Positions 4,057 through 51,560 of a DNA stretch of 52,134 nt are shown here, piece by piece. Positions within the stretch are counted from its first letter, which is position 1. Every line of letters begins with the position of its first letter. The stretch covers positions 1 through 52,134 of the forward strand of contig JANRLW010000106.1 of the NCBI GenBank assembly GCA_033762295.1, read 5' to 3'. The position numbers were made by a program, and so were the translations under genes. Under the pieces are notes generated by a model. The model ran no database searches. It saw only the letters and a list, made by a program, of their open reading frames with translations, and was not told where the DNA came from. Source of the DNA: Capsulimonadales bacterium (GTDB lineage: Bacteria > Armatimonadota > Armatimonadia > Armatimonadales > Armatimonadaceae).

Positions 4057-4953
4057 ATGACGTCCCGAAATCGCCGTGGGGGCTTCACCCTCATCGAATT
4101 GCTCGTGGTGATCGCCATCATCGCCATTCTTGCCGCTATCCTTTTCCCGGTGTTTGCCCAGGCGCGTGAAAAAGCCCGCCAGGCGACCTGTACCTCCAAC
4201 CTGAAGCAGTGGGCGCTCGCCTACATGATGTATGTTCAGGACTATGACGAGCGGTTCTTCTCCTACAACCATCGTGCGTTCGTTCGTAACGCCGCCGGTC
4301 AGACCGTTCAGACCTCCGGCTGGATCGCCCTGCTGCAGCCGTACGTCGAAAAACTGAGCAACGTCAACGACCGCGGCAAGTCGGTCGACGCGCCGGACTC
4401 TAACAGCGGTGTCGGCAACTTGCATCGCTGCCCGTCCCACAGCCCGGATCCGCGTAGCTACTTCGACGGCAGCGGCAACCCGCGCGCTTCCGCCGGTGGC
4501 GCGACCAGTGCGTACGCTCTGCCCTCCGGCTACAACTCCTATCCGACGCTGGCCGCGATCAACGCCCCGGCCGACATGATCCTGATGGCGGAAAACTACC
4601 TGAACTTCACCCAGATGGTTCACTACCCGCTCGACTGGGATGAGACCGTGGCCGCCAACAACAACAACTATGCCCGCGACCGCGCCAACGGCTCCGACTG
4701 CCGCTTCGAGAAGAACGTCGACTGCGTCATCGGCGGCGCGACCTACAAGACCCGCACCGATCTGATGCCGGGCGTTGTCGGCACCTGGGCGACCAACCTG
4801 CACACCCGCCACAGCCAGGGATCGGTCTACACGTTCGCCGACGGCCATGCCAAGTTCATGCGTCCGGCCCAGACCTTCCGCGTCAACGCGGACGGCCGCA
4901 GCGGCGACTTCTCGATGTGGACCCTGACCGGCAAGTGGTTCCGCGCCGAATAG
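4057..4953 (+). CDS. DUF1559 / prepilin-type N-terminal cleavage protein with H-X9-DG motif (copy 1)
   Basis: [48 protein letters not shown]. Confidence 0.93.
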
Positions 4954-5021: not shown

Positions 5022-6563
5022 ATGAATGACCGCCCCATTTCCCGCCGCGCCCTTCTGCATCACGCCGGAGGCATCACCTTTCTTGCCCTGACCGGTTCGG
5101 GCCAGGTGGCGTTCGCCGCCGACGACCCGCGTGGCGCCTCGCCCGGAAAACCGTTGCCACTTTTTCAGGTGCTGCCCTACCTTCAACCGGGGCCGAACGG
5201 CTCCGTGCTGCGTGACGGCGAGGAATCGATTGTCGTCTGCTGGCAGACGAACCGCGTTGCCGCCGACTTCGCTCTGACCTTCGGAGAAAAGGGGAAGCCG
5301 CACGGCGCGCCGCTCCTCCCGGAACGGATCGAACATTTCAAGGTGGATGGGACCGACGGTAAGGATTTCTATCGTTACGCCGTCACCCTGCGCGGAATGG
5401 CTCTCGAAACGGCCTACGAATACCGCATCACCCTGAATGGCGGGCGACTGGCCGAGGGGTTCTTTACCACGCGGAAGAAACCGGGACGGAAGGCGCGTTT
5501 CGTCGTCTTCGGCGACAACTCCTTCGGGGATATCTCCGATCGGCATATCGCCTACCAGTGTTACCTTCAGAAACCCGATTTCGTGGTCAATACCGGGGAT
5601 ACCGTCTACGATAACGGTCTGATCAACGAATTCACCCGCCTTTTCCTGCCGGTGCATAACGCCGATGTCGCGCACCCGCGGGTCGGCGCGCCGATCCTGC
5701 GGTCGGTGTTATTCTATACCGTCCTCGGAAACCACGATACGGTCAAGGACAATGCGAAAAGCGTCTCGTGCGCGGATTTTTCCGCCGAACCGGACGCCGG
5801 AGGCTACTATGTCTGCCTCCACCTGCCGGAAAACGGTCCCGCCGCCCCCGCGTTTCCGATGCCTCTGGAGGGAAACGAGGCCCAGGTCGCTCTGTTCCGA
5901 AAGAACGCCGGGTCACGGTTTCCTCGAACGGCGAACTACTCTTTCGATTATGCCGACGCGCATTTCCTCTGCCTGGATTCCAACACCTATGTCGATCCGA
6001 CCGATCCGGAACTGCAGGCATGGATCGACCGGGACCTGGCCGGAAGTCGGGCTGCCTGGAAGATCGCCGTCTGGCACCATCCGTCGTTCAATATGGGACG
6101 TCAGCATTACGCCAACCAGCATATGCGCGTTCTCTCGCCCCTGCTGGAAAAACACGGGGTAAGCCTGGTATTCTCCGGCCACGAACACGTCTACCAGCGG
6201 ACCCGCCCGCTTCGCTTCGCGCCCCGCGACACCGCCCGGGCGAAGGATATCACTACGGGTAATCGTCTCGTCCCCGGCGACTTTACGGTCGACCGGGGAT
6301 ATGACGGGCTGAAGAATACGGTCGCAAATGGCATAATCTATGTTGTCTCCGGCGCGGGAGGGAAGTATCTGTACGACGCCGATCAGAATGAGGCCCCGCA
6401 GAACTGGACCCATGCCGAGGATGACCATGTCGAATACGGTGCCCGATTCCTCTCGGATCGGCACTCGCTGACCGTGATCGATATGGACTCGCGACGGCTC
6501 ACCCTCCGGCAGATCGATGAGTGGGGAGCGGAAGTCGACCGTTTTGTGTTGACAAAGAGATAG
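5022..6563 (+). CDS. Tat-exported purple acid phosphatase-like metallophosphoesterase
   Basis: SRRALL Tat motif; FN3-like N-domain; GDNS, TGDTVY, LGNHD, WHHP and FSGHEHVYQR calcineurin-like motifs. Confidence 0.9.
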   Translation: MNDRPISRRALLHHAGGITFLALTGSGQVAFAADDPRGASPGKPLPLFQVLPYLQPGPNGSVLRDGEESIVVCWQTNRVAADFALTFGEKGKPHGAPLLPERIEHFKVDGTDGKDFYRYAVTLRGMALETAYEYRITLNGGRLAEGFFTTRKKPGRKARFVVFGDNSFGDISDRHIAYQCYLQKPDFVVNTGDTVYDNGLINEFTRLFLPVHNADVAHPRVGAPILRSVLFYTVLGNHDTVKDNAKSVSCADFSAEPDAGGYYVCLHLPENGPAAPAFPMPLEGNEAQVALFRKNAGSRFPRTANYSFDYADAHFLCLDSNTYVDPTDPELQAWIDRDLAGSRAAWKIAVWHHPSFNMGRQHYANQHMRVLSPLLEKHGVSLVFSGHEHVYQRTRPLRFAPRDTARAKDITTGNRLVPGDFTVDRGYDGLKNTVANGIIYVVSGAGGKYLYDADQNEAPQNWTHAEDDHVEYGARFLSDRHSLTVIDMDSRRLTLRQIDEWGAEVDRFVLTKR

Positions 6564-6667
6564 TTGCCAGAGGAGTACCTGCCATCGGACTCCCTGTGGT
6601 ACACTCCGCTTAATTCGGAAGCGTTCTCATGAGACTGGCAGAACCGGCGGATGCATTGCTGAAAGCC

Positions 6668-7099
6668 ATGCGGACCACGCTCTTTCGTAGCGTGGCTCTT
6701 CTGCTCGTTGCCGCCTGGATCGTGAACGTCGCGCCCCCCCTGCTTCTCCCCGTTGCGACGGCCGGGGTGGCGCCGGCTCCGCAGCACGGACAGGAAACAC
6801 GGACGGCGGATGCGCATGCAAAAGTCTGCAAGTGTCGTCGGTGCGGTTTCCACAACGGGAAGCGTTGCTGCTGCACCGGCGTGGCGTCGGCTGTCGACGC
6901 CCTCGCCTTTCGCCCTCTGTGCGACTCCGACGAGGTCGCGCGGAACGCGCCCGTCGTACCGCCTGCCCGGATTCCCGACCGGGTGGCGCCGGGAACGCCG
7001 GTCCTGACCCCGATACCGACGCCGATCGACACGCGCGAGACCGTTGCCGTCGGACGAACGCCGGTGCCGCCCATACTGCCGCCCCGATTCCTTTCCTGA
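6668..7099 (+). CDS. Cys-rich membrane-anchored putative regulatory leader protein (copy 1); alternative start 6629
   Basis: Hydrophobic N-terminus, VCKCRRC..RCCC..RPLCD, ends PILPPRFLS; paralogous to 8915..9391. Confidence 0.75.
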
Positions 7100-7247
7100 C
7101 CCCTCCTTTGCCACCGGTTCGACCCGGTCCCGGCATGAATCCGCATTTTACCTGCACTTCCGACCAACTTTTCGGTTGCGTTCGCGGATATTGGCTCGAC
7201 GGTCATGGTTGGGCCCTGTTCGCCTGCGCCCAGAGAGGACTCTTTTC

Positions 7248-8060
7248 ATGCGACAACTGTCCCGTATTCCGTTTGACAACGTGTCAACGTCTTCGTCAAC
7301 CTCCGCACGAACGTCCGGTGCGGCACGCACTGCCCGCGCGGGTTTCACGCTGATCGAACTGCTCGTCGTCATCGCGATAATCGCGATTCTGGCGGCCATC
7401 CTGTTTCCGGTCTTCGCCCAGGCACGGGAAAAGGGACGTCAAACGTCCTGCCTTTCCAACGGTCGGCAGATCGGAATCGCGTTCCTGATGTACGCGCAGG
7501 ATTACGATGAATTTCTGCCGCTGACGACCTTCCCGGTCGCCGCCAACACCTGGACCGACCAGACCCAGCCGTATATCAAGAATCGGGGCATCTATCGGTG
7601 TCCGAGCGATCCGAGCGCGAACTGGGACACGCCGCAGACGACCAAAGCCAGCATTCTGGACCCGACCCCGCCGGTCGTCCGCCGCGCCTCCTACTTCCTG
7701 AACGCCTATATGGCGGGAAGCAGCCGGTACGGCAATCTGGCGGCGATTTCCTCTCCGGCCAGCGTCATCTACGTCGCCGAGAGCCTGGAAGGGATCACCC
7801 GAGACCATTTCCACCCGTTTAACTGGAACGGCAATCTGGAAACGCCGACCCCGAATCCGCTTTTCAGCGGTTTCATGCATATGGCGACCTGGGACGATGC
7901 CAGAAACGAGACGAAGGAACTGGCCTTCGCCCGTCACAGCGGCGGCTCGAACTATGTGTTCCTGGACGGTCACAGCAAATGGCAGCGCTGGTCCCAGGTC
8001 TACTGGCAGAAGCCCGAACAGGGGATCTGGCAGGGGGCCTTCGATCCGCGACAGCCTTAG
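7248..8060 (+). CDS. DUF1559 prepilin-type/H-X9-DG protein (copy 2)
   Basis: SD AGAGAGGA before ATG 7248; [23 protein letters not shown]. Confidence 0.92.
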
Positions 8061-8072
8061 GAGAACGAAACG

Positions 8073-8912
8073 ATGACAGTTCGTTTGCGGATCACGCGAA
8101 TGGTGGCCGGGCTTTGCCTGGCCGCCCCTCTCCTGATGCTTCCCCGACTCGTGTTCGGGCATGATACCTGGGTGCAGACCAATATCCATCTGATCCGGGT
8201 CGGCGACCTGGTCCATATCGACCTGATGCTCGGGAATCATGGAAACGCGCATCGGGACTTCAAACTGGCGTCCAAGGTCGACCCGGTCCGTTCGACCCTG
8301 ACGGTCATCGCGCCGGACGGTAAGCGTTACGACCTGAAGGACCGACTGACCGACACGGGATACGCGCCGAAGGAGGGGTACTGGACCACTTCGCTGGCGG
8401 TCGACAGGTCGGGACTGTATACGGTCGCGCATACGTTCGATGCCGTGATGGACTACGCTCCGGAGCGATCGATCAAGAGCGCGAAGGCGTTTTTCGTCGC
8501 CAGTCAAAGCCTGGATAAACCCCGAACGGAGAACCCCGGATTCGACCGGCCTCTCGGTCATCCGCTGGAACTCGTCCCGGTGGCGAATCCGGTGACGCCG
8601 ATGGGGCCGGGGACTCCCATTTCCGTTCGTCTGCTCTATCGGGGCAAGCCCCTGGCGGACGAGCGGATCGCGTTCATTCCCCGAGGCGTGTCGCTGAAGG
8701 CGGAGGGGCCGGATGACCGGTTCGAGAAGATCACCGACGCGAACGGCATCGCCACTTTTGAGCCGAAAGAGGCCAACTACTACCTGATCGTCGCGCACCG
8801 TGAGGAGAAAAACGAGGGGGGATCGCTCGACGGCAAACCCTACCGATTCACCCGATACGGCGCGACCCTGACCGTCTATGTCCCGCAGGTCTGCGCCTGC
8901 TGCGGAGGCTGA
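8073..8912 (+). CDS. DUF4198 domain exported protein (Ni/Co uptake-associated family)
   Basis: Signal peptide then HDTWV; GHPLELVPVANP, LLYRGKPL, TDANGIATF; C-terminal CACCGG. Confidence 0.85.
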   Translation: MTVRLRITRMVAGLCLAAPLLMLPRLVFGHDTWVQTNIHLIRVGDLVHIDLMLGNHGNAHRDFKLASKVDPVRSTLTVIAPDGKRYDLKDRLTDTGYAPKEGYWTTSLAVDRSGLYTVAHTFDAVMDYAPERSIKSAKAFFVASQSLDKPRTENPGFDRPLGHPLELVPVANPVTPMGPGTPISVRLLYRGKPLADERIAFIPRGVSLKAEGPDDRFEKITDANGIATFEPKEANYYLIVAHREEKNEGGSLDGKPYRFTRYGATLTVYVPQVCACCGG

Positions 8913-8914
8913 CC

Positions 8915-9391
8915 TTGTCCGTCCCGGTCGCGAGCTTTCGTCCGATCGCCGCCCTGCTGATCCTGGCATGGTGTCTGCCCTGGATCGCCCCCCGGTTCCT
9001 GCCGGGGGAGGCCCGTTCGTTCGTCTGCTCACTGATCGGAGACAAAACGGCGAATCTTCCTGCCGGGGAAGCGGCCGTGGCGGAAAGCCAAGATCCGGAG
9101 GTCGAGCACCGGCGGGTCTGTCGCTGCCTCAACTGCTCCGGTGGGGCGCGTTGCTGTTGTCTCACTGCGCGCGGGCCGCGCGAAGGGACCGTTCTGCGCG
9201 CCCTCTGCGATATCGGACTACCGGAGACGGTGGTTTCCGTTTCCATGTTCAAGGTATGTTTTCCGTCCCTCACGGCGATCGGGGAGGTTCCGACCGTCGA
9301 CCTTCGGGCGACCGGCCTTCCGAACACCGCGACTCGGACGGTCGCTTCCCGCTTTCCCGAACCGTCGGTACCCCCGCCTCGCCTTTCGTAA
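8915..9391 (+). CDS. Cys-rich membrane-anchored putative regulatory leader protein (copy 2)
   Basis: TTG 2 nt after the DUF4198 stop; hydrophobic N-terminus, VCRCLNC..RCCC..RALCD, ends PSVPPPRLS. Confidence 0.75.
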
Positions 9392-9478
9392 ATCGGACTC
9401 ACTTGCATGCTCCTTCCCGGCCGTCATCGAGGGTCTTCCCCGAGGGCGGTCCGGGATTCACTCCGATTTCGAAAGGTG
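9380..9478 (+). promoter_or_regulatory. SD-sequestering hairpin linking the leader's last codons to the RBS of the next gene
   Basis: CGCCTTTCG(T)AAATCGGA (9380-9397) pairs with TCCGATTTCGAAAGGTG (9462-9478): 17 bp with one G-U and one bulge. Inner stem TCCCGG-CCG/CGG-t-CCGGGA. Confidence 0.7.
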
Positions 9479-9482
9479 TACC

Positions 9483-10280
9483 ATGAAAGACAAACGAAAC
9501 TCGTCAAGGTCGGTGTTCTTTGCTGCGTTCACGTTGATCGAGCTGCTCGTCGTCATCGCCATAATCGCCCTGCTCGCGGCGATTCTTTTCCCGGTCTTCG
9601 CCCAGGCGCGGGAGAAGGCGCGGCAGACCTCCTGTCTCTCCAACCTGAAGCAGATCGGTCTTGCCTATACCATGTATATGCAGGACTACGACGGGAGTCT
9701 GCCGCTCACCATCATGAATGGCGGCTTTGCTTCCTGGCTGAACGCCTGTCAGCCCTACATCAAAAACCGGCGGATGTTCCGCTGTCCGTCGGACAACAGC
9801 ACCCGTCCGTTCCCCTCGACCGAAGCGGACTGGAACGCCGACTACTATCTCCCGGGAACCTTTGACCCGAATCCGGACTACTTCAAATTTCGTCGCACCT
9901 CCTATACGTTCAATGTCTGGTTGATGGGACCGGTGCCCGAATTCCCGATGGTCAAAGGGAACGACAGTATGGTTTCCAGTCCTGCCAATGTCATCTATGT
10001 GGCGGAAGTGAAGGACAATTCGGACCTGGACCATTTCTCGCCGATGTGCTGGGACACCATCGAACCCGATGTCCGGTACCCCTACTGCTTCAAAAGCGCG
10101 TTCGGCTGGGATGCCGCGAAAAAGGAGCCGACCGAACTGGATATCAACCGCCATAACCAGGGAGCGAACTATGCCTACATGGACGGACATGTCAAATGGA
10201 GCAAGTTCTCCCGTGTCTTCTGGCAGGATATTCCGAACGGTATCTACGAGGGCAACTTCGACCCGGCGGCCAATCGTTAA
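9483..10280 (+). CDS. DUF1559 prepilin-type/H-X9-DG protein (copy 3)
   Basis: [23 protein letters not shown]; close paralog of copy 2. Confidence 0.92.
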
Positions 10281-10292
10281 GGAGAAACCTCA

Positions 10293-11156
10293 ATGAATCG
10301 ACGCGAATTTACAAAAATCGTCGGGGCCGGGACGGTCGCCTCGGCGGTCGCCACCCTGGTGGAATCGGACGCCGGGGCGCAGGACAGCGGGGCGAAACCG
10401 ACCGTGCGACCGGCGACGGCGAATCACGATATGTCCGGATATAATATTCCGAACGGACCTCCACAGCAGATCGCCATGTTCGTCTACCCGAACATGACCG
10501 CTCTCGATCTGGTCGCGCCGCACCTGATGTTCACCGGCCTGATGAATGTCGCCGTTCACCTGGTGGCCAAAACCCTGAAGCCGATAAGATCCGATAACGG
10601 ACTCACCATCGTCCCGACCACGACCCTGGCAAAGTGTCCGAAAAAACTGACGGTACTCTTCTGTCCGGGCGGCTCGCAGGGGACGCTGGCCATGATGAAG
10701 GATGTCGAGGTGCTGAATTTTCTGGCCGATCGGGGAAAAACCGCCTCCTATGTCACGAGCGTCTGCACCGGATCGCTGCTTCTCGGAGCGGCGGGCTTGC
10801 TCGAAGGCTATCGAGCGACCTCTCACTGGGCGGTTCGGGACGAGATACTGCCTCTGTACGGAGCGATTCCGGTCAACGAACGCGTCGTCGAGGATCGAAA
10901 TCGGATCACGGGAGCCGGAGTGACCGCCGGAATGGATTTCGGTCTTCGACTGGCGACGTTGCTACGCAACGAAAAGTATGCGCGCGCCCTGCAGCTAGCC
11001 TTCGAATACGACCCGCAACCTGGTTACCGTGCCGGGACACCCGAGACGGCGGGTGAGGATGTGGTCGGCATGATGAACGCCATGTACGCCCCGCTGGTGA
11101 CCGATCTGAAAGCGGTGGCGGCAAAACGACCCCGGCGGGGAACGACCCGCGGATAA
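10293..11156 (+). CDS. Tat-exported DJ-1/PfpI family protein (isonitrile hydratase-like)
   Basis: MNRREF Tat motif; SVCTGS, GVTAGMDF, EYDPQP motifs. Confidence 0.88.
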   Translation: MNRREFTKIVGAGTVASAVATLVESDAGAQDSGAKPTVRPATANHDMSGYNIPNGPPQQIAMFVYPNMTALDLVAPHLMFTGLMNVAVHLVAKTLKPIRSDNGLTIVPTTTLAKCPKKLTVLFCPGGSQGTLAMMKDVEVLNFLADRGKTASYVTSVCTGSLLLGAAGLLEGYRATSHWAVRDEILPLYGAIPVNERVVEDRNRITGAGVTAGMDFGLRLATLLRNEKYARALQLAFEYDPQPGYRAGTPETAGEDVVGMMNAMYAPLVTDLKAVAAKRPRRGTTRG

Positions 11157-11157
11157 G

Positions 11158-11607
11158 GTGAAAACAATGAAACTACGGACGATGAATCAAACGACAAAAA
11201 TCGCCGCGCTTCTGGCCGTGCTTATGGTGACGCCCTTTGCCGTTGCTCAGGAAAAACCCTCGGCCAAATCGGGCAAGGCAATGGCCTGCGAGAACTGCGC
11301 TCCCAAAACCGGGGCGAAGAAGGCCGGACGGGATGCCTGCGCGGTGCCGAAGACCATGACTCTGTCCGGACTGGACTGCCCCGGATGCGCGAACGGAATC
11401 AAGTCGGCGCTGGCCGAAGTGACCGGCGTGGAAGAGGTGACCGTGGATGTGAAGGCGCAGAAAGCCGTCGTCTGGGTCTGTCCGCATAAGAACGTGACGA
11501 CGAAGGCGCTGACCGAAGCGGTGACGGGCGCCGGATTCAAGGTCGTTCGTGTGGAGGACGGCACGCCGAAAGCCCCTCGAAAACCGAAAGCCGGCAAGCG
11601 CGGCTAA
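11158..11607 (+). CDS. Exported heavy-metal-associated (HMA) domain protein
   Basis: Signal peptide, extra CENC, and HMA motif GLDCPGCANGIKSAL...GVEEV. Confidence 0.88.
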   Translation: MKTMKLRTMNQTTKIAALLAVLMVTPFAVAQEKPSAKSGKAMACENCAPKTGAKKAGRDACAVPKTMTLSGLDCPGCANGIKSALAEVTGVEEVTVDVKAQKAVVWVCPHKNVTTKALTEAVTGAGFKVVRVEDGTPKAPRKPKAGKRG

Positions 11608-11621
11608 TTCGAATGACGACG

Positions 11622-11650
11622 AATCCCGTCCCGAATTTCGGGGCGGGATT
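11622..11650. terminator. Hairpin ending the metal cluster
   Basis: AATCCCGTCCCGA-att-TCGGGGCGGGATT, a 13-bp stem with one G-U. Confidence 0.55.
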
Positions 11651-11688
11651 ACCGGTGAAGGGTTCCGCCCGGACGGTATGATGATTTT

Positions 11689-12483
11689 ATGGTCATCAAC
11701 TGGGATTACTGGTTTGTCTTTCCGTATGCCGTTTTTGTGGCCGTCATGGCCAATGCCTCCGGCTTTTCCGGAGCCGTTCTTTTCCAGCCATTCTTTAACT
11801 TCGTTTTGAAACTGCCGATCGCCAATTCGATCGCGACCGGTATCGCCACCGAGACGATCGGAATGACGAGCGGCGCTCTCCAGTACGTGCGCCTTCGTCA
11901 GGTCGATTTTTCCGCCCTTCGCTTTCTTCTTCTGCCCATTCTGGTGGGTGTCGCCGCGGGCTTGTTCCTGTTCGTCAACGTTCCGCGTGATATTCTCCGC
12001 CTGCTGGTCGGGGTCGTGATCTCCGCGATCTCGCTTTACCAGTTTCTGCGGGTGGCGAAGGGACTGCTGGGAACCGGTCAGACGATCAACGGGGAACGAT
12101 TGAAACGCTGGACCTGGGTCAGCGTCTTTTCCGGGCTGTTTTCCGCCTGTACGGGGACCGGCGTTGCCGAGATGAACCAGCCTTTGCTGGAGGAGCAGGG
12201 AGAACTGGCGACGAAACGGGCGAACGCGACCGCCATCCTTCTCGAGGCGATCGCGGACTGGACGATTACGATCGTTAACCTGAAGCTGGGTTTCCTTCGT
12301 CCGGATATCCTGCTTTTCAGCGCGACCGGGGTCTTGATCGGCGCGCAGATCGGCGCGTTGATCTCCCGGTTTTTGCCCGATCGCCTGTTGAAACTGATAT
12401 TCGCGGTCGCGGTTCTCTTTATCGGGGGCGTCTACATCGTGACAACGGTCGGTAAATTCCTGTCGGGCGCGCCCCTGAAGTAG
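11689..12483 (+). CDS. Sulfite exporter TauE/SafE family membrane protein
   Basis: Multiple TM helices; ANASGFSGAVLFQP; GVLIGAQIGA. Confidence 0.85.
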   Translation: MVINWDYWFVFPYAVFVAVMANASGFSGAVLFQPFFNFVLKLPIANSIATGIATETIGMTSGALQYVRLRQVDFSALRFLLLPILVGVAAGLFLFVNVPRDILRLLVGVVISAISLYQFLRVAKGLLGTGQTINGERLKRWTWVSVFSGLFSACTGTGVAEMNQPLLEEQGELATKRANATAILLEAIADWTITIVNLKLGFLRPDILLFSATGVLIGAQIGALISRFLPDRLLKLIFAVAVLFIGGVYIVTTVGKFLSGAPLK

Positions 12484-13512: not shown

Positions 13513-14610
13513 ATGGAAAGGATGAAACTGTTTTTCCGAGCGGCGATTGCCTGCCTTTGTGTGCTTCCGGCAGGCGCAGTCTACTGGGTCATCGCACAGG
13601 GGCGGTCCGTACCCGTCAAGGCGGCGCGGCGGGTGCTCTCCGACGGAATGCCTGCCCCGGATTTCACCCTGACCGCACAGGACGGGAGGACGTTCCGCCT
13701 GAGCGATTACCGTGGCCGCACCGTCTTTCTGGCGTTCGTACCCTCCTGGACCGATGAGAAAACTCGTGCGGAAGCGCGCGCCCTGGCCGGGTCCCAGGCC
13801 GAGTTCGACGCGGTCGGCGCGAAAGCGTTCCTGATTTCGGAGGATGCTGCGGAAACGGCACGACGATTCCACGATGACGCAAAACTGCCGTTCCCTCTGC
13901 TGATCGACCCGGAGAACTCCCTGGCCCGGCAATACACCGTTCCGAACGGCGATTACCGTACGACCTTCGTGGTCGATCCGAGCGGAATCGTCCGCTATCG
14001 TATCGGAGATGCCATCATCGAACCGGCGCGGGCCGGGAAGCAGTTGATCGAGATCAGCCAGTGCTGTGTGGACGAAGTGCTGGCGGCGCGGGCGCACGGG
14101 ATCGGAAAGCCGGTCGGCGAGTTCGGTCTTCCACGGGTCGATCGCGAAGGGCGGATGGAGCCGTTGATCGGCAGGGAACCGGCGAAGGCGACGGTTGTGC
14201 TGTTCCTGTCGGTGAAGTGCCCCTGTTCGAACAACTACAACCGGCGTGTGCGGGAACTGGCCGACCGACTATCCGGGGTACGTGTCGTCGGCGTCTACTC
14301 GAATCAGGATGAGACGGCGGCGGACATCGCCCGTCATGCGCGTGAGAACGCCTTTGCGTTTCCGGTTTTCCGGGACGAGCGGGCCTTATGCGCGGACCAC
14401 TTCGGCGCGGCGGTCACCCCCGAGGCATTTGTGCTGGACGGGCAGCGCAGACTTCGCTATGCCGGTCGGATCGACGACAGCCGGGACCCGGATCGAGTAA
14501 GTCACCCGGACCTCGCGCGGGCCATCGATGAGGTAATGGCCGGACGCAGTCCGGCGCAACCGGATACCCCGGCGTTCGGCTGCGGAATCGTTCGAAAGGA
14601 AAACCCCTGA
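13513..14610 (+). CDS. Membrane-anchored tandem redoxin (AhpC/TSA-like plus thioredoxin-like) protein
   Basis: APDFTL...LSDYRG first domain; second domain with CPCS, TPEAFV, YAGRIDD and FGCGI. Confidence 0.85.
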   Translation: MERMKLFFRAAIACLCVLPAGAVYWVIAQGRSVPVKAARRVLSDGMPAPDFTLTAQDGRTFRLSDYRGRTVFLAFVPSWTDEKTRAEARALAGSQAEFDAVGAKAFLISEDAAETARRFHDDAKLPFPLLIDPENSLARQYTVPNGDYRTTFVVDPSGIVRYRIGDAIIEPARAGKQLIEISQCCVDEVLAARAHGIGKPVGEFGLPRVDREGRMEPLIGREPAKATVVLFLSVKCPCSNNYNRRVRELADRLSGVRVVGVYSNQDETAADIARHARENAFAFPVFRDERALCADHFGAAVTPEAFVLDGQRRLRYAGRIDDSRDPDRVSHPDLARAIDEVMAGRSPAQPDTPAFGCGIVRKENP

Positions 14611-14622
14611 AGCGTCCCCTCC

Positions 14623-15378
14623 CTAATCGGGCGGCGGGGAAAACCCGAACCGGCGCAGGATAACCTGCGCCGGTTGGCTTTTCAGGAAGGCGGCAAACCG
14701 ACGGGCGAGGTTCGAATGTCGGCTTCTGCGAACGACCGCCGCCGGGTAAACGATCGCGAGGTGATCCTTGCCGGGTCGGGCATGGGCGACGACGGTCACC
14801 CGTGGTTCGATCCCGGCATCGGTCGCAAAAACGATCCCGGCAGCCGCATCTCCGTTCGCCACATAGGTCAGGGTCTGCCGGACATTCCCCCCGAAAACTC
14901 CCTTCGGGCGCACGGCGTTCCACAGGCCCCGCCGAATCAGCGTTTCCCGGGCGTATCGTCCGGAGGGCACGGAGGCGGGATCGGAGAGCGCCACCCGACG
15001 AACGGTCTCCCGTTTCAGATCCGCCCAGTCCTGTAACGGGGTTCCGACCGGACCGATCAGAACCAGGCGGTTCCCGGCAAACTCGGTGCGCGTTTCGCCT
15101 ATCAGGTCGCCGTTACGGATCAGAACCTCCATTTCCTGCGGCGATGCCGGGGCGAAAACGTCAATCGGCGCTCCCTGACGGATCTGTTGCAGAAGGGTAC
15201 CCGACGATCCGAACGTGAACCGGACGACGGTTCCGGGATTCGCTCTTGAAAACGCCTGCCCGATCTCCCGCATCGCATTGGTGAGGGAGGATGCCGCCGC
15301 CACCGTGATCGTCTCGGCCCGCCCGGACCGTGGGAGAACGACGAACGCCATCAGGACAACAACGGCTCCTAACCTCAT
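14623..15378 (-). CDS. modA: Molybdate ABC transporter substrate-binding protein
   Basis: [47 protein letters not shown] overlaps the upstream stop (ATGA). Confidence 0.92.
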
Positions 15379-16136
15379 GGGTCGGCCATGAAGTCGGCGT
15401 CCGTCAGGCTTTCCGGGCGACGCCATTTCGCGCTCCCGTCGTAACGGAGGGTGTTGAACCCACCCGTGTGGCGGGTCGGATAATGCGTATGGGTGGTGTC
15501 CGCCGAGGGTGGAAAGATTCCCCAGACCCCGGTCGTGTTCGGCATCCGGGTATCGGCGCATCCCGGCGTTCGTTTATGATCCCAGACTTGCATGACCGAC
15601 GGATGGGTGACGGCCGCATCGGGTTTGCCCATCGGTCCCGCCGTGATATAACTCATCGCGTAACCTACCTGACCCTGCGGGTAGCTCGGACAGCGAAAAA
15701 TCATCAGGTTACGGAAGTAGGGTTGCAACATTTCCTGCTTGGACGGAGTGTCGTAGGGAACATACCCAACGTTCGCCGGTTCGGGATCAAGGCTGTTATC
15801 ATAAGGAGCCCACCAGGTCTCGTTCGGGCCGGTGATTCTCGTCGGGCTCGCAGTCGTGCAGAGGGTATCACCGGTACGATCCGGACAGACTCGATGCCGC
15901 GGGTTGGTCAGGTCGTAGTCCTGTCGGTAGAGGGCGATCGCGAGACCGATCTGTCGGACGTTGGAAAGACAGTTCGCGGAACGCGCCTTCTCCCGAGCCT
16001 GACCGAAAACGGGGAAGAGTATCGCCGCCAGTATCGAGATAATCGCGATGACGACGAGGAGTTCGATCAGCGTGAAGGCAACGTATCGCAGGGTGGGAGT
16101 TCCCGGCAGGGATAACGGTCCGGGTGGCGCGTTCAT
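15375..16136 (-). CDS. DUF1559 prepilin-type/H-X9-DG protein (copy 4)
   Basis: [27 protein letters not shown] overlaps at both ends. Confidence 0.9.
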
Positions 16137-16933
16137 ACGGAAGCCTTCGCTCGCGCCGCGCGAATCCGTTCCTGCATCTTCGGAACCTCCTCCCGCCACC
16201 GAAGGTCGTCCGGACTGACGAAGTTATCATGAAGCGTTGCCCGTTTGACGTACGGAACATAGTTTCCGATATGCCAGCAGGAAGCGCGGTAGATCGCCAC
16301 ATCGCCGGCGAAAAGCGAGACCTGTGTCGCTCCGGGCATGCTCCGGACGTACTCCTGGCAGAGGCGTTCACGCTCCTCCGGGGTCCGCGCGCCGCTGAAA
16401 TCCGGCGACGGGGGCGGAACCACGGGAAAGGCGGCGCGTTCCTCCGGGGTGTCCTCCCGGTTATGGCTGCCGGGAACGGCCCAGAGAGAGTGATCGTCGT
16501 ACAGGGCGCCATTGAACTGACAGAAGGTCGCAAGGTTCCGACTGAATTCGAAAAACGTCGCCAGATCGAGATCAGGGACGTTATAGCCCCAGTCCCGATG
16601 CCATTGGGTGCACCAGGGGTGTTCCGCCGGTTCCAGCAGGATTCCCATATTCCGGGTCGTCGTGTGGTCAGGTCCGAGCAACATCCCGCGCACGGTTTGA
16701 ACGTCCGGCAGTTCGAGAAATTCGGTAAACGGTCGGTGATTCAGTTCGTCGTACTCGTAGACGGGTTGGAGACGCTGTGCCTGCGCCCCGTGCTGACGGC
16801 GAGCGATGTCACGCGCGCGGTCCGCTTCCCGGCGCAGGTCGCTCAGCAGCGACGGCGGGATGATGCCTCGAAGGATCGTGAAACCGTCGCGGACGTACTC
16901 CTCGCGCAAACGGTCGTCGTATGCGAAAGCCAT
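16133..16933 (-). CDS. Phytanoyl-CoA dioxygenase (PhyH) family protein
   Basis: [21 protein letters not shown]...WH motifs. Confidence 0.88.
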
Positions 16934-25893: not shown

Positions 25894-26763
25894 ATGCCCC
25901 GTCGACCGAAACCGCCCGGCCGCGGAACCGTGCCGCCGCGCGAAACCCTGCTGTTAGCGTACCGGTTCGTCGCCCTGGTCCTGGTCGGCGCAATAATCGG
26001 CTGGCTTCTTCGATCCGGGCCGCCTCGAACCGTGCCGCCGACCCCTATCACGAACCCGGGGGCGCCTCTGGGCGGTGTGACCGTGATTCTCGACCCCGGT
26101 CATGGCGGGAGCGATTCCGGGTATCGCCGAAAGGACTGCCGGGAGGACACGCTGAATTACCGTTTTGCCGCCACCCTGGGCCGGGTACTCTCGGAGGGGG
26201 GCGCGAACGTGCGGTTCACGGTGACGAGCGCCGCCCTGGATATCCGTCCGATCGAGGGACGGCCGGAACCGCCGCTGCTGCGACCGAGGGACGCCCGGCT
26301 GGCGTTCAATCGGACGCCCGTCACCGGGTCGGTGGATGCGCTGCATCAACGCGCGGCGTTCGCCCGGGAACCGTACCGGTCACTCACTCCGGAGAAACGC
26401 GCCCTGGCGAAGGGACTGTACTTCCTGGCGATCCATCATGACTCCTTCCGGTTGAAGCGGGTGCGGGGCGCGCACGTCCTCTATGACCGCCGCGCCGGTG
26501 GGCCGCCGCGCCTGGCGCATGTTCTGGCCCGTCGGCTGTCGCAGGCCGGTCTGGCCCGCACGAAGTACGACGGCAAAATTCCGGTCTCCGATGCCCGGCA
26601 ACTCGGCGTCCTGAACCCGCTCTTCAACCCCGTTCCGCAGCGGGCGCTTCTCGAGGTGGCGACGCTCTCGAACGCGAAGGATCGGGAGAACGCTTTCTCC
26701 CGGCAGTGGCGATGGAAGTTCGCCCGGTTGATCCGCGATGCGATCATCGAATGCGAACGGTGA
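25894..26763 (+). CDS. N-acetylmuramoyl-L-alanine amidase (Amidase_3), membrane-anchored
   Basis: TM segment, ILDPGHGG, E(DTLN), LAIHHD, LLEVATLSN. Confidence 0.88.
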   Translation: MPRRPKPPGRGTVPPRETLLLAYRFVALVLVGAIIGWLLRSGPPRTVPPTPITNPGAPLGGVTVILDPGHGGSDSGYRRKDCREDTLNYRFAATLGRVLSEGGANVRFTVTSAALDIRPIEGRPEPPLLRPRDARLAFNRTPVTGSVDALHQRAAFAREPYRSLTPEKRALAKGLYFLAIHHDSFRLKRVRGAHVLYDRRAGGPPRLAHVLARRLSQAGLARTKYDGKIPVSDARQLGVLNPLFNPVPQRALLEVATLSNAKDRENAFSRQWRWKFARLIRDAIIECER

Positions 26764-26768
26764 CGTTG

Positions 26769-26886
26769 CGCCCCCGGTTGATCCCATGGCGACCGGGGAA
26801 CGCTCCTTGACAGGAGAACCGGCGAGTGTTACTGTGTGTTTGATGAACACGAAGGCAGAGGCCGACGTCGATCCGACGGCTTACGA
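26769..26886 (+). repeat. 118-bp direct repeat, copy 1 (hairpin, promoter, operator, first 15 codons of nrtR)
   Basis: Manual alignment to 33950-34067 gives 5 mismatches and no gaps. Confidence 0.95.
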
Positions 26887-28054
26887 CACCACCATCGATA
26901 CCGCATGGGTACGGCAGGCGGTCCGTGCCATCCACGCCGACATGCGTCGCTCCGCCGATACCCACCTGTTGCGGTTTCCTCTGCCGGCGACAGCCTTTGA
27001 TGGGCTGGCGCTCTATCTCAAAGACGAGTCCACCCATCCGACCGGAAGTCTGAAACACCGGCTGGCGCGATCGCTCTTTCTTTATGCGCTCTGTAACGGC
27101 AAGATAACCAACCCCGATGTGCCAGTCTATGAGGCGTCTTCCGGTTCGACCGCGATTTCCGAGGCATATTTTGCGCAATTGATCGGTTTGCGTAACTTCT
27201 ATGCTGTGGTGCCCGCACGAACAGCGCCGATGAAATTACGTCTGATCGAGGACTATGGCGGCAAAGTCCTGCGCACCGAGGATGATGTCATTGCTGAAGC
27301 GAAGCGACAGGCAGCGGCGAATAACGGCTATTTCGTCGATCAGTTCACTTTCTCCGAACGAGCCACCGACTGGCGCGGCAACAACAACATTGCGGAAACG
27401 ATTTTCGAACAGATGGAGCAGGAACCGGAATCCTTTCGGATTCCTCAGTGGGTGGTAGTCGGAGCGGGAACCGGAGGCACTTCCGCCACCATTGGTCGTT
27501 ATGCCCGATATAAGGGATTTGACACCCGTGTCTGTGTGGCGGATCCACCTGAATCGTCCTACTTTTCCTGCTGGGCGCGGTCGCGAGGTCGCGAGAGCCA
27601 TACCCTGCAACGTTATTGTATGGCGTCTCCCATCGAAGGAATCGGTCGTCCCACGCCCGCCGATTCGTTTCTGCCCGAGATCATCGATGGTATGGTGACG
27701 GTTCCCAATGAAGCCTCGGTCGGAGCGATGCTATATCTCTATCAAACGGGTCGATACTATTGCGGCGTCAGCACCGGGACCAACCTGATCGGGGCCATTC
27801 AGCTCCTGGAGAAGATGCGGCAGGAGGGGCAGAGCGGCTCACTGGTGACCTTGATCTGCGACTCCGGTCTTCGTTATGCGCAGACGTATTATGATTCCTC
27901 GTGGCGCAGCCTCCAGCGCTATCCCGACGGCTCCCCGATGTATGACGAATCTCTGGTAACCGCCTATATGGACGCAGTGCGGGCGTTCCTGGAACGCGGA
28001 CGATCGTTTCCGTATGAACTATTGTCTGGTCGAATAGCGGTAGATTTTACTTGA
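26843..28054 (+). CDS. PLP-dependent cysteine synthase family protein (Cds1-like cysteine desulfhydrase) with NrtR-derived N-terminus
   Basis: RSADTHL, LKDESTHPTGSLKHRLARSLFLY, EASSGSTA, TDWRGNNNIAE, GAGTGGTS. Confidence 0.9.
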   Translation: MNTKAEADVDPTAYDTTIDTAWVRQAVRAIHADMRRSADTHLLRFPLPATAFDGLALYLKDESTHPTGSLKHRLARSLFLYALCNGKITNPDVPVYEASSGSTAISEAYFAQLIGLRNFYAVVPARTAPMKLRLIEDYGGKVLRTEDDVIAEAKRQAAANNGYFVDQFTFSERATDWRGNNNIAETIFEQMEQEPESFRIPQWVVVGAGTGGTSATIGRYARYKGFDTRVCVADPPESSYFSCWARSRGRESHTLQRYCMASPIEGIGRPTPADSFLPEIIDGMVTVPNEASVGAMLYLYQTGRYYCGVSTGTNLIGAIQLLEKMRQEGQSGSLVTLICDSGLRYAQTYYDSSWRSLQRYPDGSPMYDESLVTAYMDAVRAFLERGRSFPYELLSGRIAVDFT

Positions 28055-33832: not shown

Positions 33833-33949
33833 GTCAGGTTATTAGACCATGGATGGGAAAGTATGGATGGAGAGATCGGACACTCCGGGGCACTTTAAGA
33901 AACGACTCGCCGCAACATCGGTTCAGGCATTTCAAAACGGGCAATTTTT

Positions 33950-34067
33950 CGCCTCCGGTTGATCCCATGGCGACCGGGGAATGCCCCTTGACAGGAGGAC
34001 CGGCGAGTGTTACTATGTGTTTGATGAACACGAAGGCAGAGGCCGACGTCGATCCGACGGCTTACGA
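33950..34067 (+). repeat. 118-bp direct repeat, copy 2 (native nrtR 5' region)
   Basis: Matches 26769-26886. Confidence 0.95.
33988..34031 (+). promoter_or_regulatory. Sigma-70 promoter TTGACA-17-TACTAT with NrtR-type operator over the start codon
   Basis: ATG lies 7 nt after the -10; palindrome GTGT-TTGATGA-ACAC (GT-N7-AC) at 34017-34031. Confidence 0.75.
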
Positions 34068-34755
34068 TATCACGCAGTTCGATCGACCATCCGTCGCCGT
34101 CGATATCGTCGCGTTCGTCATCGGCTCGTTCCAGTGTGCGAAGGGGAACTGCCTGCACGTTCTTCTCATCCGGCGGGGGATCGAACCCTTTCGGGGCGCC
34201 TGGGCGTTGCCGGGGGGCTTCATTCACCTGACCGAGAGTCCGGACGAGGCGGCGCAGCGCGAATTGATCGAGGAAACCGGACTGTCCGGCGCGTCCTATC
34301 TGGAGCAACTGTATACGTTCGGCCGGCCGGATCGCGATCCCCGGACGCGAGTGATCTCGATCGCCTATTACGCTTTGTTGCCGCTGAACGAGGGAAACTT
34401 TGCCAATCCCAGGGCCGGAACCGACGCCGCCGAGGCGCAGTGGTGGCCCGCCGACGCCCTGCCGGAACTGGCGTTCGATCATCGCGAGATCATCGACACC
34501 GCATTGGCCCGGCTGCGGGCCAAACTGTCCTATTCGTCGGTCGCCTATGCGCTGCTGCCCGAGGTGTTTACCCTGACCGAACTGCAGAATGTCTACGAGA
34601 TCATTCTTGGCCGGCAACTCGACAAACGCAACTTTCGAAAGAAGATGCTTTCTTCGGAGATCCTGGAGGATACCGGCAGGCAGCGCCGGGAAGGGCGTCA
34701 TCGCCCCGCCGCGCTGTTCCGCTTCACTCGCCGTGAGCCGGTCTTTCCGGACTGA
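34024..34755 (+). CDS. nrtR: NrtR-family Nudix-wHTH transcriptional regulator
   Basis: Intact Nudix box GFIHLTESPDEAAQRELIEETG; LEQLYTFG..DRDPR; FTLTELQ..YE..L...DKRNFRKK. Confidence 0.93.
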   Translation: MNTKAEADVDPTAYDITQFDRPSVAVDIVAFVIGSFQCAKGNCLHVLLIRRGIEPFRGAWALPGGFIHLTESPDEAAQRELIEETGLSGASYLEQLYTFGRPDRDPRTRVISIAYYALLPLNEGNFANPRAGTDAAEAQWWPADALPELAFDHREIIDTALARLRAKLSYSSVAYALLPEVFTLTELQNVYEIILGRQLDKRNFRKKMLSSEILEDTGRQRREGRHRPAALFRFTRREPVFPD

Positions 34756-49155: not shown

Positions 49156-50541
49156 ATGGCCTCATTTGTCGCGGCCCCCGCCGAACCGCGTATCGTAATC
49201 GTCGGAGGAAAGCGTCTCGTCGGAACGATCCCGGTCAGCGGGTCGAAGAATGCCTCCCTCGCCATTCTGGCCGGGGCGATTCTCGCGGCGGAAGGGGAGA
49301 CTGTCCTGCATGGTCTTCCTCGTATCGGCGATATCGAGACGATGGCGCTCGTTCTTCAGCAACTGGGCGTCCGGACCGCGTTCGAGAACCAGGGGCGCAC
49401 TCTGCGCATCAACGCCTCCTCCCTCACCAACTGTGAAGCCCCTCCGGACCTGGTGGCCCGGATGCGTGCGTCGTTCTGGGTGCTCGGTCCGGTGCTGGCG
49501 CGATTGGGCGAGGCGAAGGTCACGCAGCCGGGTGGGTGCAATATCGGCGCGCGGCCGATCGATCTTCATCTCAAGGGGCTGGCGGCGCTCGGAGCCGATC
49601 TCGATGTCTCCTTCGGCAGCGTGACGGCGGTTGCCGGGCAGGGGTTGCGGGGAGCGAAGATCTACCTGGATTTCCCCTCGGTCGGCGCGACGATGAACCT
49701 GATGATGGCGGCGTCGCTGGCGGAAGGCGTCACCGTGATCGAGAATGCGGCCCAGGAACCCGACGTCGAGGATCTGGGCAATTTTCTGATCGCTCTGGGG
49801 GCGCGGGTACAGGGACACGGAACCGGAATGCTGACCGTTCAGGGCGTCCGCCGTCTGCGGGGCGCGGAATACACGGTGAGCGCGGACCGGATGGAGGCGG
49901 GGACGTTCGGTGTAATGGCGGGAATCACCGGAGGGAATGTCCTGCTCGAGCCGGTCGACCCGATCCATATGCGACCGATCACCCTGAAAATGATCGAGGC
50001 CGGAATGCGGATCGAGGAGGGACCGAACTTCGTGCGCTGTATCGGCCCGGATCGCCCGCGTTTCACCAATCTGACCGCAATGCCGCACCCCGGCTTTCCG
50101 ACGGACATGCAGCAGGCGTTCACCGCTATGCTTACCGTCGCGGACGGCACCTCGGTGATCACGGACAATGTGTATGAGAACCGTTTCCGTTTCCTGACTG
50201 AGATGGCGCGTATGGGCGCACGGTCGCAAGTGAATGGCCGGACGGCGGTCATCTCCGGGGTTGCCCGGCTGACCGGCGCGGATGTGGAGGCGTCCGATCT
50301 GCGCGCGGGCGCCGCCCTGGTGACGGCGGGACTGGCCGCGCACGGGCAGACACGGGTCTTCAAAACCGAGCATCTGCACCGGGGGTACGAACGGTTCGTC
50401 GAGAAATTGACCGCCGTCGGTGCGGAGATCTGGCGCGAGGACGAGTTCGGTCGGCCTCTCGGTTCGGAGCGAAGCGGCGAAGGCGATCGAGAAACGGCGG
50501 AAAACCGGACGGAACGAGGAACCCAATGCTCCCCCGCGTAA
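49156..50541 (+). CDS. murA: UDP-N-acetylglucosamine 1-carboxyvinyltransferase
   Basis: [44 protein letters not shown]. Confidence 0.97.
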
Positions 50542-51560
50542 CTCCCGAACTGGGCATCGACCTTGGCACGGCCAATATCCTGGTGTACAAGCGCGGCCAG
50601 GGGATCGTGCTCCGGGAACCATCGGTCGTCGCGATCGACAAGTACACGAAGAAGGTAAAGGCGGTCGGCGAGGAGGCCCGCCTGATGCTCGGTCGGACGC
50701 CGGGCAATATTGTTGCCATCCGCCCGATGAGTGACGGCGTCATCGCCGACTACACCACCACGGAAAAGATGCTGGGGCATCTGATCGCCAAGGTATCCGG
50801 CCCCTGGCGTCATGTGATGGCGTTCAAACCCCGTGTCCTGGTCTGCGTTCCGTCGGGCGTCACCTCGGTCGAGAAGCGCGCCGTCCTCCAGGCGGCGGTG
50901 GCGGCGGGGGCGGGCGAAGCGGCGACGATCGAGGAGACGATGGCCGCCGCGATCGGCGCCGGTCTGCCGATCGCGACACCGGGCGGCAATATGGTGGTGG
51001 ATATCGGCGGGGGAACGACCGATATCGCCGTCATCTCCCTCGGCGGTATCGTTATCTCGCGCAGCCTGCGCGTCGGCGGCAACAAGATCGACGAGGTGAT
51101 CGTCCGTCATATCCGGAACGCTTACAACCTGATGATCGGCGACCGGACGGCGGAGGAGATCAAGATCAAGATCGGTTCCGCCTATCCGCTGGAGCAGGAG
51201 ATGCGTCTGGACGTACGCGGACGCGACCTCCTGGCCGGACTGCCGAAAACGGTCGTGGTTACCAGCGAGGAGATCCGCGAAGCCCTCGCCGAACCGGTCT
51301 CCAACATCGTGGACAAGGTCAAGGGCGTTCTCGAACAGACCCCGCCCGAACTGTCGTCGGACATCATCGAACGGGGCATCACCCTGACCGGCGGTGGAGC
51401 GATGCTGCGCGGTTTCGACCGTCTGCTGTCGCTGGCGACGGGGATTCCGGTCAAGGTGGCGGACAATCCGCTCGACTGCGTCGTCATCGGCACCGGCCGC
51501 GCGCTGGAGGAGTTCCGGGCCATCCGCCAGAGCGACAACCTGACCGTCTCCTACACCTGA
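50526..51560 (+). CDS. mreB: Second MreB paralog (Mbl-like)
   Basis: [23 protein letters not shown]; follows murA. Confidence 0.93.

Follow-up and report, generated by a model that had tools for sequence, protein, structure and literature searches.

Two small open reading frames (ORFs) in a genome of the phylum Armatimonadota, each preceding a gene for a prepilin-like DUF1559 protein, are probably ribosome-pausing sensors of metal or thiols, to judge from their sequences and those of their relatives. They are located in contig JANRLW010000106.1 of Capsulimonadales bacterium (assembly GCA_033762295.1), of which we have analyzed positions 1 to 52,134 of the forward strand (the whole stretch of 52,134 nt is hereafter called the window). 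With a probability of about 0.62, we take each of these ORFs, or leaders, to be a cis-acting translational switch for its pilin gene, similar to CutF and carrying a metal-sensing Cys cluster. The last leader codons would hold the Shine-Dalgarno (SD) of the next gene shut until a ribosome, whose product is being exported co-translationally, halts on a terminal Pro-Pro and covers the next ~13 nt. Its footprint would then open the helix and the pilin gene would be translated, the stall being the ON state. At the pause the Cys cluster would already be outside the ribosome, and probably outside the translocon, where a bound thiophilic metal (Cu, Zn, Ni, or Co) could alter the duration of the pause. 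The target would be one subgroup of DUF1559 proteins, with two such modules in series within one apparent operon.

A family of seven-Cys leaders in Armatimonadota

Leader 1 (6668..7099, plus strand) is a 143-aa ORF with an N-terminal hydrophobic helix and an alternative ATG at 6629, in which seven Cys (C54-x-C56-xx-C59, C67C68C69, and C85) are followed by Pro138-Pro139 and the C-terminus PILPPRFLS*. Leader 2 (8915..9391, plus strand, 158 aa) has the same Cys cluster and ends in PSVPPPRLS*. They are 30% identical over 94 aa (BLASTP, E 1e-8). The original prediction was right about the motif and endings of both ORFs (the spacers being x6/x12 and x4/x12), and its description of them as seven-Cys leaders holds for the motif, although leader 2 has 10 Cys altogether, seven of them within it. 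The patterns CxCxxC..CCC and CC..(L/M)CD each match only these two ORFs among the 87,001 six-frame segments of the 5.16-Mb genome. Neither leader gave a relevant match in Pfam or NCBIfam; specifically, neither matched DUF2946 (PF11162) at E up to 1, nor are they among the PF11162 matches in this genome. The AF2 model of leader 1, of low confidence, has a helix at residues 2–21, a pTM of 0.31, and no compact fold, and a fold search with it returned no match.

Word-index homolog searches reached the window's own proteins and then 10 proteins, and profile searches were required to recover the family. With a profile of the two leaders, matches were obtained in 23 of 301 genomes from the phylum and to 22 additional library proteins. 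Four of the 24 non-window genome matches (three spurious-looking and one short homolog) were left out before aligning, and the alignment of 44 sequences, used as a profile, retrieved 65 non-window matches and placed the family in 61 of 401 Armatimonadota genomes. CxxC, CCC, and the last Cys are invariant among the 44 aligned leaders, and the terminal Pro-Pro is present in at least 90%. Of the 67 sequences, 62 could be measured, leaving out one that missed the pattern, one truncated by its contig, one with an apparent frameshift, and two short forms that lack PP. The CxCxxC..CCC pattern is found in 59 of these 62, as is a PP within the final 15 residues (both window leaders included), and a hydrophobic 15-mer (KD 1.6 or more), a putative signal segment, lies ahead of the Cys cluster in 57. 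The distance from the last Cys to the last PP is 50–58 residues in 58 leaders, with a mode of 52, and this linker of ~50 residues keeps its length but not its sequence, with PP fixed at its end. With the start codons chosen in this analysis, 41 leaders are shorter than 150 aa and 57 shorter than 170 aa, and 41 have a His ahead of the Cys cluster.

The proposal that PPR is the arrest motif does not survive this wider comparison, since only the Pro-Pro is near-invariant: the next residue is R in 39 of the 62 and otherwise C, Q, S, or others, 23 have PPP, and none has RAPP or RGPP. The Cys cluster is, as predicted, of another kind (CxCxxC..CCC..C), and none of the 44 members matches DUF2946 at E up to 10. 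By language-model features the nearest named clusters are DUF6769, DUF6660, and CzcI, at 0.90, which serves as a lead only. Nine non-overlapping leader pairs have dN/dS values of 0.14–0.58, and all four Pro codons are in use in the family. On this evidence the leaders are protein-coding genes under purifying selection, which, together with their conservation across genomes, rules out a chance or shadow ORF. Homologs of 67–74 aa at two loci (L113:2446-2667 and L114) have the CxCxxC..CCC cluster without linker or PP and lie upstream of DUF899 genes.

A predicted helix over the pilin Shine-Dalgarno

In both modules of the window, the codons that follow the prolines are predicted to pair with the SD region of the pilin gene. 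The Pro-Pro codons of leader 1 (7079..7084, plus strand), a putative pause site, precede an anti-SD arm made of the codons R-F-L-S-stop (7086..7098), predicted to pair with 7232..7243, the SD region of pilin 1 (AGAGAGGA) and 3' arm of helix 1. The Pro-Pro-Pro codons of leader 2 (9371..9379, plus strand), a putative pause site of the CutF type (PPPRL), precede an arm comprising the codons R-L-S-stop plus 6 nt (9380..9397), with 17 predicted pairs with 9462..9478, the SD region of pilin 2 (GAAAGG) and 3' arm of helix 2. The region of helix 2 has a z of −3.55, none of 200 shuffles being equally stable, and the predicted unpaired fraction of its SD rises from 0.01 when free to 0.50 once a footprint occupies the PP codons.

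The same arrangement recurs in the family. Folds of leader ends with their spacers pair the final codons with the pilin SD, with a mean z of −2.5 and 32 of 50 below −2. Pairing the 24 nt that begin at the second Pro codon with the SD region of the pilin yields an average duplex energy of −17.3 kcal/mol for cognate pairs vs. −10.4 across loci (54 loci), the best of 10,000 permutations reaching −12.6; −14 or lower is attained at 38 of 54 leader loci but by none of 59 other pilins in this genome. SD pairing is maximal at +3 to +13 nt, counted from where the second Pro codon starts, and at background level 18 nt or more upstream, and at least four expected SD pairs are found in 46 of 54 loci. Six related loci have in common a 16-pair helix with three two-sided changes. 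A simulated ribosome footprint at PP increases mean SD opening from 0.29 to 0.46, with a gain above 0.2 in 22 of 54 loci, compared to just 2 of 54 with a control footprint ten codons earlier. That the final leader codons pair with the next SD and keep it closed is thus a prediction supported by controls, and by these models a ribosome pausing on Pro-Pro would turn pilin translation on. This predicted SD-masking helix makes a stall-operated switch much more likely. As these codons are predicted to pair with the SD, the preference for R-L/F-S after PP is probably in part an RNA constraint.

One competing explanation would place control at transcription, as in CruR, the stalled ribosome shielding a Rho site and setting expression of the whole operon with the SD helix secondary; we consider it improbable, since the excess of C over G in the last 90 nt of the window leaders (39 vs. 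24 and 40 vs. 23) comes from the Pro codons, the 148-nt gap of module 1 approaches the 162 nt over which CruR acts in this way (available text of PMC9426467) but the median gap is 76 nt, and the SD-specific, locus-specific pairing is left unexplained by Rho, although both kinds of control could coexist.

Downstream pilins, exchangeable leaders, and alternative inputs

Pilin 1 (7248..8060) and pilin 2 (9483..10280), both on the plus strand, exceed the curated cut-offs for the N_methyl motif, PF07596 (DUF1559), and TIGR04294 (H-X9-DG), and contain the motifs DHFHPFNW and DHFSPMCW, respectively. Each is indeed the next gene after its leader, as predicted, although "directly upstream" has to be read with gaps of 148 nt (module 1) and 91 nt (module 2). 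The expectation that a profile search from the two leaders would reveal non-random downstream genes was also confirmed: in this conserved family with a hydrophobic N-terminus, Cys cluster, and near-fixed Cys-PP spacing, the first downstream gene encodes a prepilin at 56 of 65 homolog loci (55 by motif and one by Pfam), the median gap being 76 nt in these 56 loci. The nine others comprise two contig ends, the two short homologs before DUF899, a DJ-1, a redoxin-pilin fusion, a thioredoxin-like protein, an outer-membrane-barrel-like protein (no Pfam match), and one unassigned. In one locus (L080:1819-3798) a tandem redoxin and a DUF1559 prepilin share a single reading frame behind the leader, either a fusion or a lost stop.

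This genome has 131 prepilin-like DUF1559-type ORFs, of which only two carry the seven-Cys leader; the window holds at least five, at 4057, 7248, 9483, 16199 (minus strand), and 31187. A tree of all 131 with 52 leader-linked pilins of other genomes (midpoint root; unlinked pilins taken from this genome only) gathered 49 of the 52 and both window pilins in one clade of 59 tips with local support of 0.865, which includes eight unlinked pilins. For 46 of the 52, the best match among the 131 is one of the two window pilins. In this subgroup, which has a DHFxPMxW motif with an invariant E and an invariant P, loops rich in Met, His, or Cys are frequent, and its His/Met/Cys-rich DHFxPMxW loop may bind metal. 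In the AF2 model of pilin 1 (pLDDT 89.7) the N-terminus forms a long helix; the top fold matches are to pilins, with weak scores (Z 5.9).

In the reverse direction, a profile of the region specific to these pilins matched 117 of 401 genomes plus 44 named loci, and we inspected 72 distinct loci with upstream DNA, a sample deliberately enriched for loci without a known leader. The seven-Cys family was present at 25 and another small exported-type Cys/His ORF ending in PP at 16 (nine of a CPTA..CxC type, three with RGPP, one CxxC-RAPP, and three divergent Cys-rich), while 31 had no leader directly upstream, three of these having been flagged at first on a long enzyme ORF. The RGPP leaders (L134, L154, and L230) and the RAPP leader (L163) thus precede the same pilin subgroup; those of L230 and L163 show weak DUF2946 matches, below cut-off. 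A search of 251 genomes of Planctomycetota, the phylum of L163 and our only sample outside Armatimonadota, did not recover the seven-Cys family. The CPTA..CxC type constitutes a second unnamed family (L129, L130, L131, L133, L138, L140, L213, L217, and L228) with a hydrophobic N-terminus, CPTA..CC..PxPGE..CxC, and a terminal PP or PPP, again with this pilin subgroup downstream; the eight members scanned had no significant Pfam match. The presence of different leaders in the same slot favors a regulatory role over a fixed structural partnership.

Further genes at leader loci code for tandem redoxins, HMA, SCO, DUF4198, DJ-1, PepSY_TM, CobW, ArsP, TauE, SOD, and a TonB receptor with ExbBD. Of the 52 linked pilins, 16 have metal markers and 13 have thiol-redox markers in the 4 kb behind them, as opposed to 1 and 0, respectively, of 123 other pilins in this genome. 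The same stall and anti-SD switch could instead respond to how the exported Cys cluster is oxidatively folded or to its thiol-redox state, an alternative that we regard as unlikely but as the best surviving one. The 52 loci include nine with tandem AhpC/Redoxin, five with DJ-1, three with TauE, and one with SOD, and RAPP/RGPP leaders precede DsbA and thioredoxin genes in the available text of PMC12992588. However, the neighbors also include HMA, SCO, DUF4198, CobW, PepSY_TM, and ArsP, AhpC_TSA genes occur in the copper-linked CruR operons as well (available text of PMC9426467), and the His ahead of the cluster in two-thirds of the leaders (41/62) speaks for metal.

Still less probable, in our opinion, is that the small protein is itself the functional product, either metallothionein-like or a chaperone partner of the pilin, with a helix that merely couples translation constitutively. 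The seven conserved Cys and the purifying selection would suit such a role, as would the short homologs before DUF899 genes, with a Cys cluster and no PP tail; moreover, the stop codon is part of the helix, which every ribosome terminating there would open. Against it stand the linker conserved in length only, with PP fixed at its end, the unrelated leaders of the same pilin subgroup, sharing nothing but export signal, Cys/His, and terminal PP, and the lack of a compact fold in the leader model.

Several results weigh against a metal-responsive stall switch itself. Helix 1 is weak on its own (z −1.06, with 22 of 200 shuffles equally stable), and the footprint takes the opening of the pilin 1 SD only from 0.33 to 0.46. 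Among the 54 loci, SD pairing is missing in eight and the footprint gain is 0.2 or less in 32. Of 914 ordinary gene pairs, called roughly, 172 also reach a duplex of −14, and 12 divergent sequences gave no consensus structure, their loops failing to align. A terminating ribosome, 3–4 codons further on, could open the same helix without regulated stalling, and the absence of RAPP and RGPP from all 62 leaders means that the proven arrest motif is lacking. The surveyed genomes are related, so that the counts overstate independence, and the metal and redox markers were picked post hoc from the same loci, where redox markers are nearly as frequent as metal ones (13 vs. 16 of 52) and 30 of 52 have neither.

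The apparent operon and its relation to known stall-operated systems

The gene order on the plus strand is leader 1, pilin 1, DUF4198 (8073..8912, with a C-terminal CxCCGG tail), leader 2, pilin 2, a DJ-1/PfpI family protein with a Tat-like N-terminus (10293..11156), an HMA-domain (CopZ/MerP-like) protein with a signal-like N-terminus (11167..11607), and a TauE/SafE membrane protein (11689..12483). The DJ-1/PfpI and HMA genes probably belong to the operon, and TauE is its probable end. The predicted setting among DUF4198 and HMA genes is therefore correct and extends to DJ-1/PfpI and TauE. Leader 2 starts with TTG, 2 nt past the DUF4198 stop, and a GGAGG (8904-8908) lies six bases before this start. 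Rfam gave no match at E up to 1 across 6300-12000, and scans for intrinsic terminators and sigma-70 promoters at the leaders were at shuffle level, with no plus-strand promoter.

The two modules are paralogous, as had been predicted (the leaders as given above, the pilins 49% identical across 252 columns), but they are old paralogs. Each window leader and each window pilin is nearer to sequences of other genomes than to its own twin, which rules out a recent tandem duplication and indicates that the window joins two old modules. In other genomes, the pilin-DUF4198 unit (L081 and L099) and the pilin-DJ-1 unit (L075 and L077) are found separately, each behind a single leader. All three DUF4198 proteins read (window 8073-8912, L081:4234-5085, and L099:5334-6161) have the CxCCGG tail and a His-Asp-Thr-Trp immediately past the signal-like segment. 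Beyond one minus-strand gene after the operon lies a tandem AhpC/Redoxin protein with a CCxD motif (13513-14610), a type that also follows several leader-pilin pairs in other genomes. Elsewhere in the window, a DUF1559 pilin gene and the gene of a ModA-like solute-binding protein (SBP_bac_11) overlap or abut at 14623-16199 on the minus strand, two different ORFs (26738-28054 and 33853-34755) have a near-identical N-terminal stretch of ~40 codons that suggests a small duplicated segment, and there are two genes that we take to be MreB-like actins (985-2040 and 50526-51560).

As is proposed here for the seven-Cys leaders, SecM of Escherichia coli is an exported nascent chain that arrests near its C-terminus and controls the downstream gene, secA; unlike them, it lacks a Cys cluster, arrests with RAGP, and serves as a monitor of secretion. 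The original prediction had chosen CruR as the analog, which holds for the type of switch, but the closest model is CutF, because its end, PEPEGPPPRL, is almost that of leader 2 (PPPRLS). In R. capsulatus (Rhodobacter capsulatus) CutF stalls at this PPP (bioRxiv 10.1101/2025.02.05.636593, available text), so the predicted novelty of the arrest motif is lost. CutF-cutO likewise combines a small exported-type upstream ORF, a Cys motif, a C-terminal proline run, and an SD-hiding mRNA helix that yields to a paused ribosome, here by prediction. It differs in its CxxxC, as opposed to the seven-Cys CxCxxC..CCC..C cluster, in DUF2946, which the seven-Cys family does not match, in its target, a multicopper oxidase instead of a DUF1559 prepilin, and in its stem-loop, described in the available text as intergenic, whereas here the predicted anti-SD arm lies within the last codons of the leader. 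The available text of PMC9973294 reports the SD-shielding stem-loop of CutF and 5,334 CutF-like proteins, with 29 published clusters, selected by small size (<150 aa, or 170 in an earlier list), an N-terminal Sec signal peptide, PP in the last 15 residues, and a same-strand gene within 1000 nt downstream; it names neither Armatimonadota nor pilin targets for this class. The window leaders have the PP, the downstream gene (gaps of 148 and 91 nt), and sizes of 143 and 158 aa, and the seven-Cys family, compared with the class by these rules only, may be among those proteins.

CruR (Bp2923, DUF2946) of Bordetella pertussis, with CxxC and RAPP, spacing between them that matters, and Rho termination (available text of PMC9426467), has an arrest demonstrated in PMC12992588 (available text). 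Like the leaders described here, it is an upstream ORF heading a metal-related operon, with CxxC at a fixed distance from a terminal PP, and the partner types PepSY_TM, SCO, AhpC_TSA, and TonB receptor are common to both. It differs in needing RAPP and Rho termination and in having 45 residues between its motifs, vs. about 52 from the last Cys here. The direction of the metal effect is opposite in the two models, metal prolonging the pause in CutF and ending it in CruR. We lean slightly to the latter, with pilin being made under metal scarcity, because many partner genes resemble uptake or maturation genes. On contig C18 the same genome has a CruR-like leader of 130 aa (L234:1492-1884, minus strand), whose sequence combines a hydrophobic N-terminus with a stretch rich in His, a CPFC, and RAPP at the C-terminus; it shows a weak DUF2946 match (20.7 bits, below cut-off) and lies upstream of an ABC ATPase gene.

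We found no paper on the seven-Cys leader family in our literature search, and the claim that it is undescribed stands for this sequence family, but not for stall-type leaders before DUF1559 genes in general. DUF1559 is enriched 6.5-fold behind RAPP leaders (112 RAPP vs. 68 AAPP) in the source data of Figure 4B of PMC12992588, a result absent from its main text, so small stall-type ORFs in this slot were already on record. The term "Armatimonad" had no match in the searched supplementary files of that work, and the seven-Cys family, lacking the motif on which the survey selected, would not be listed there.

The novel elements are the seven-Cys family as such, the placement of the anti-SD directly after a putative pause site of plain PP, the association with a single DUF1559 subgroup whose leaders are interchangeable, and the serial arrangement of two switches. 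Judging by the sequences, these leaders probably form a new family, still without a name, with the kind of switch already familiar from CutF and CruR, both of them copper sensors. A broader proposal, which we offer only tentatively, is that the DUF1559 subgroup is a surface or periplasmic metal-capture protein repeatedly placed under at least four unrelated stall leaders (seven-Cys, CPTA..CxC, RGPP, and CxxC-RAPP), and that the seven-Cys leader senses not through a lone CxxC but through either a thiol-redox switch or a multi-thiolate metal cluster, works without RAPP, and can be present twice in series within an operon. Stall-operated metal sensing, with two studied examples, both in Proteobacteria, would be extended by the seven-Cys leaders to a nameless sequence family in a phylum that has been little studied. 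Leaders with a plain Pro-Pro escape surveys based on RAPP/RGPP, but the anti-SD signature right after the prolines can expose them. There is also a handle on DUF1559 itself: of the 131 genes, the two with this leader point to a subgroup distinguished by a loop rich in His and Met and by neighbors related to metal or redox.

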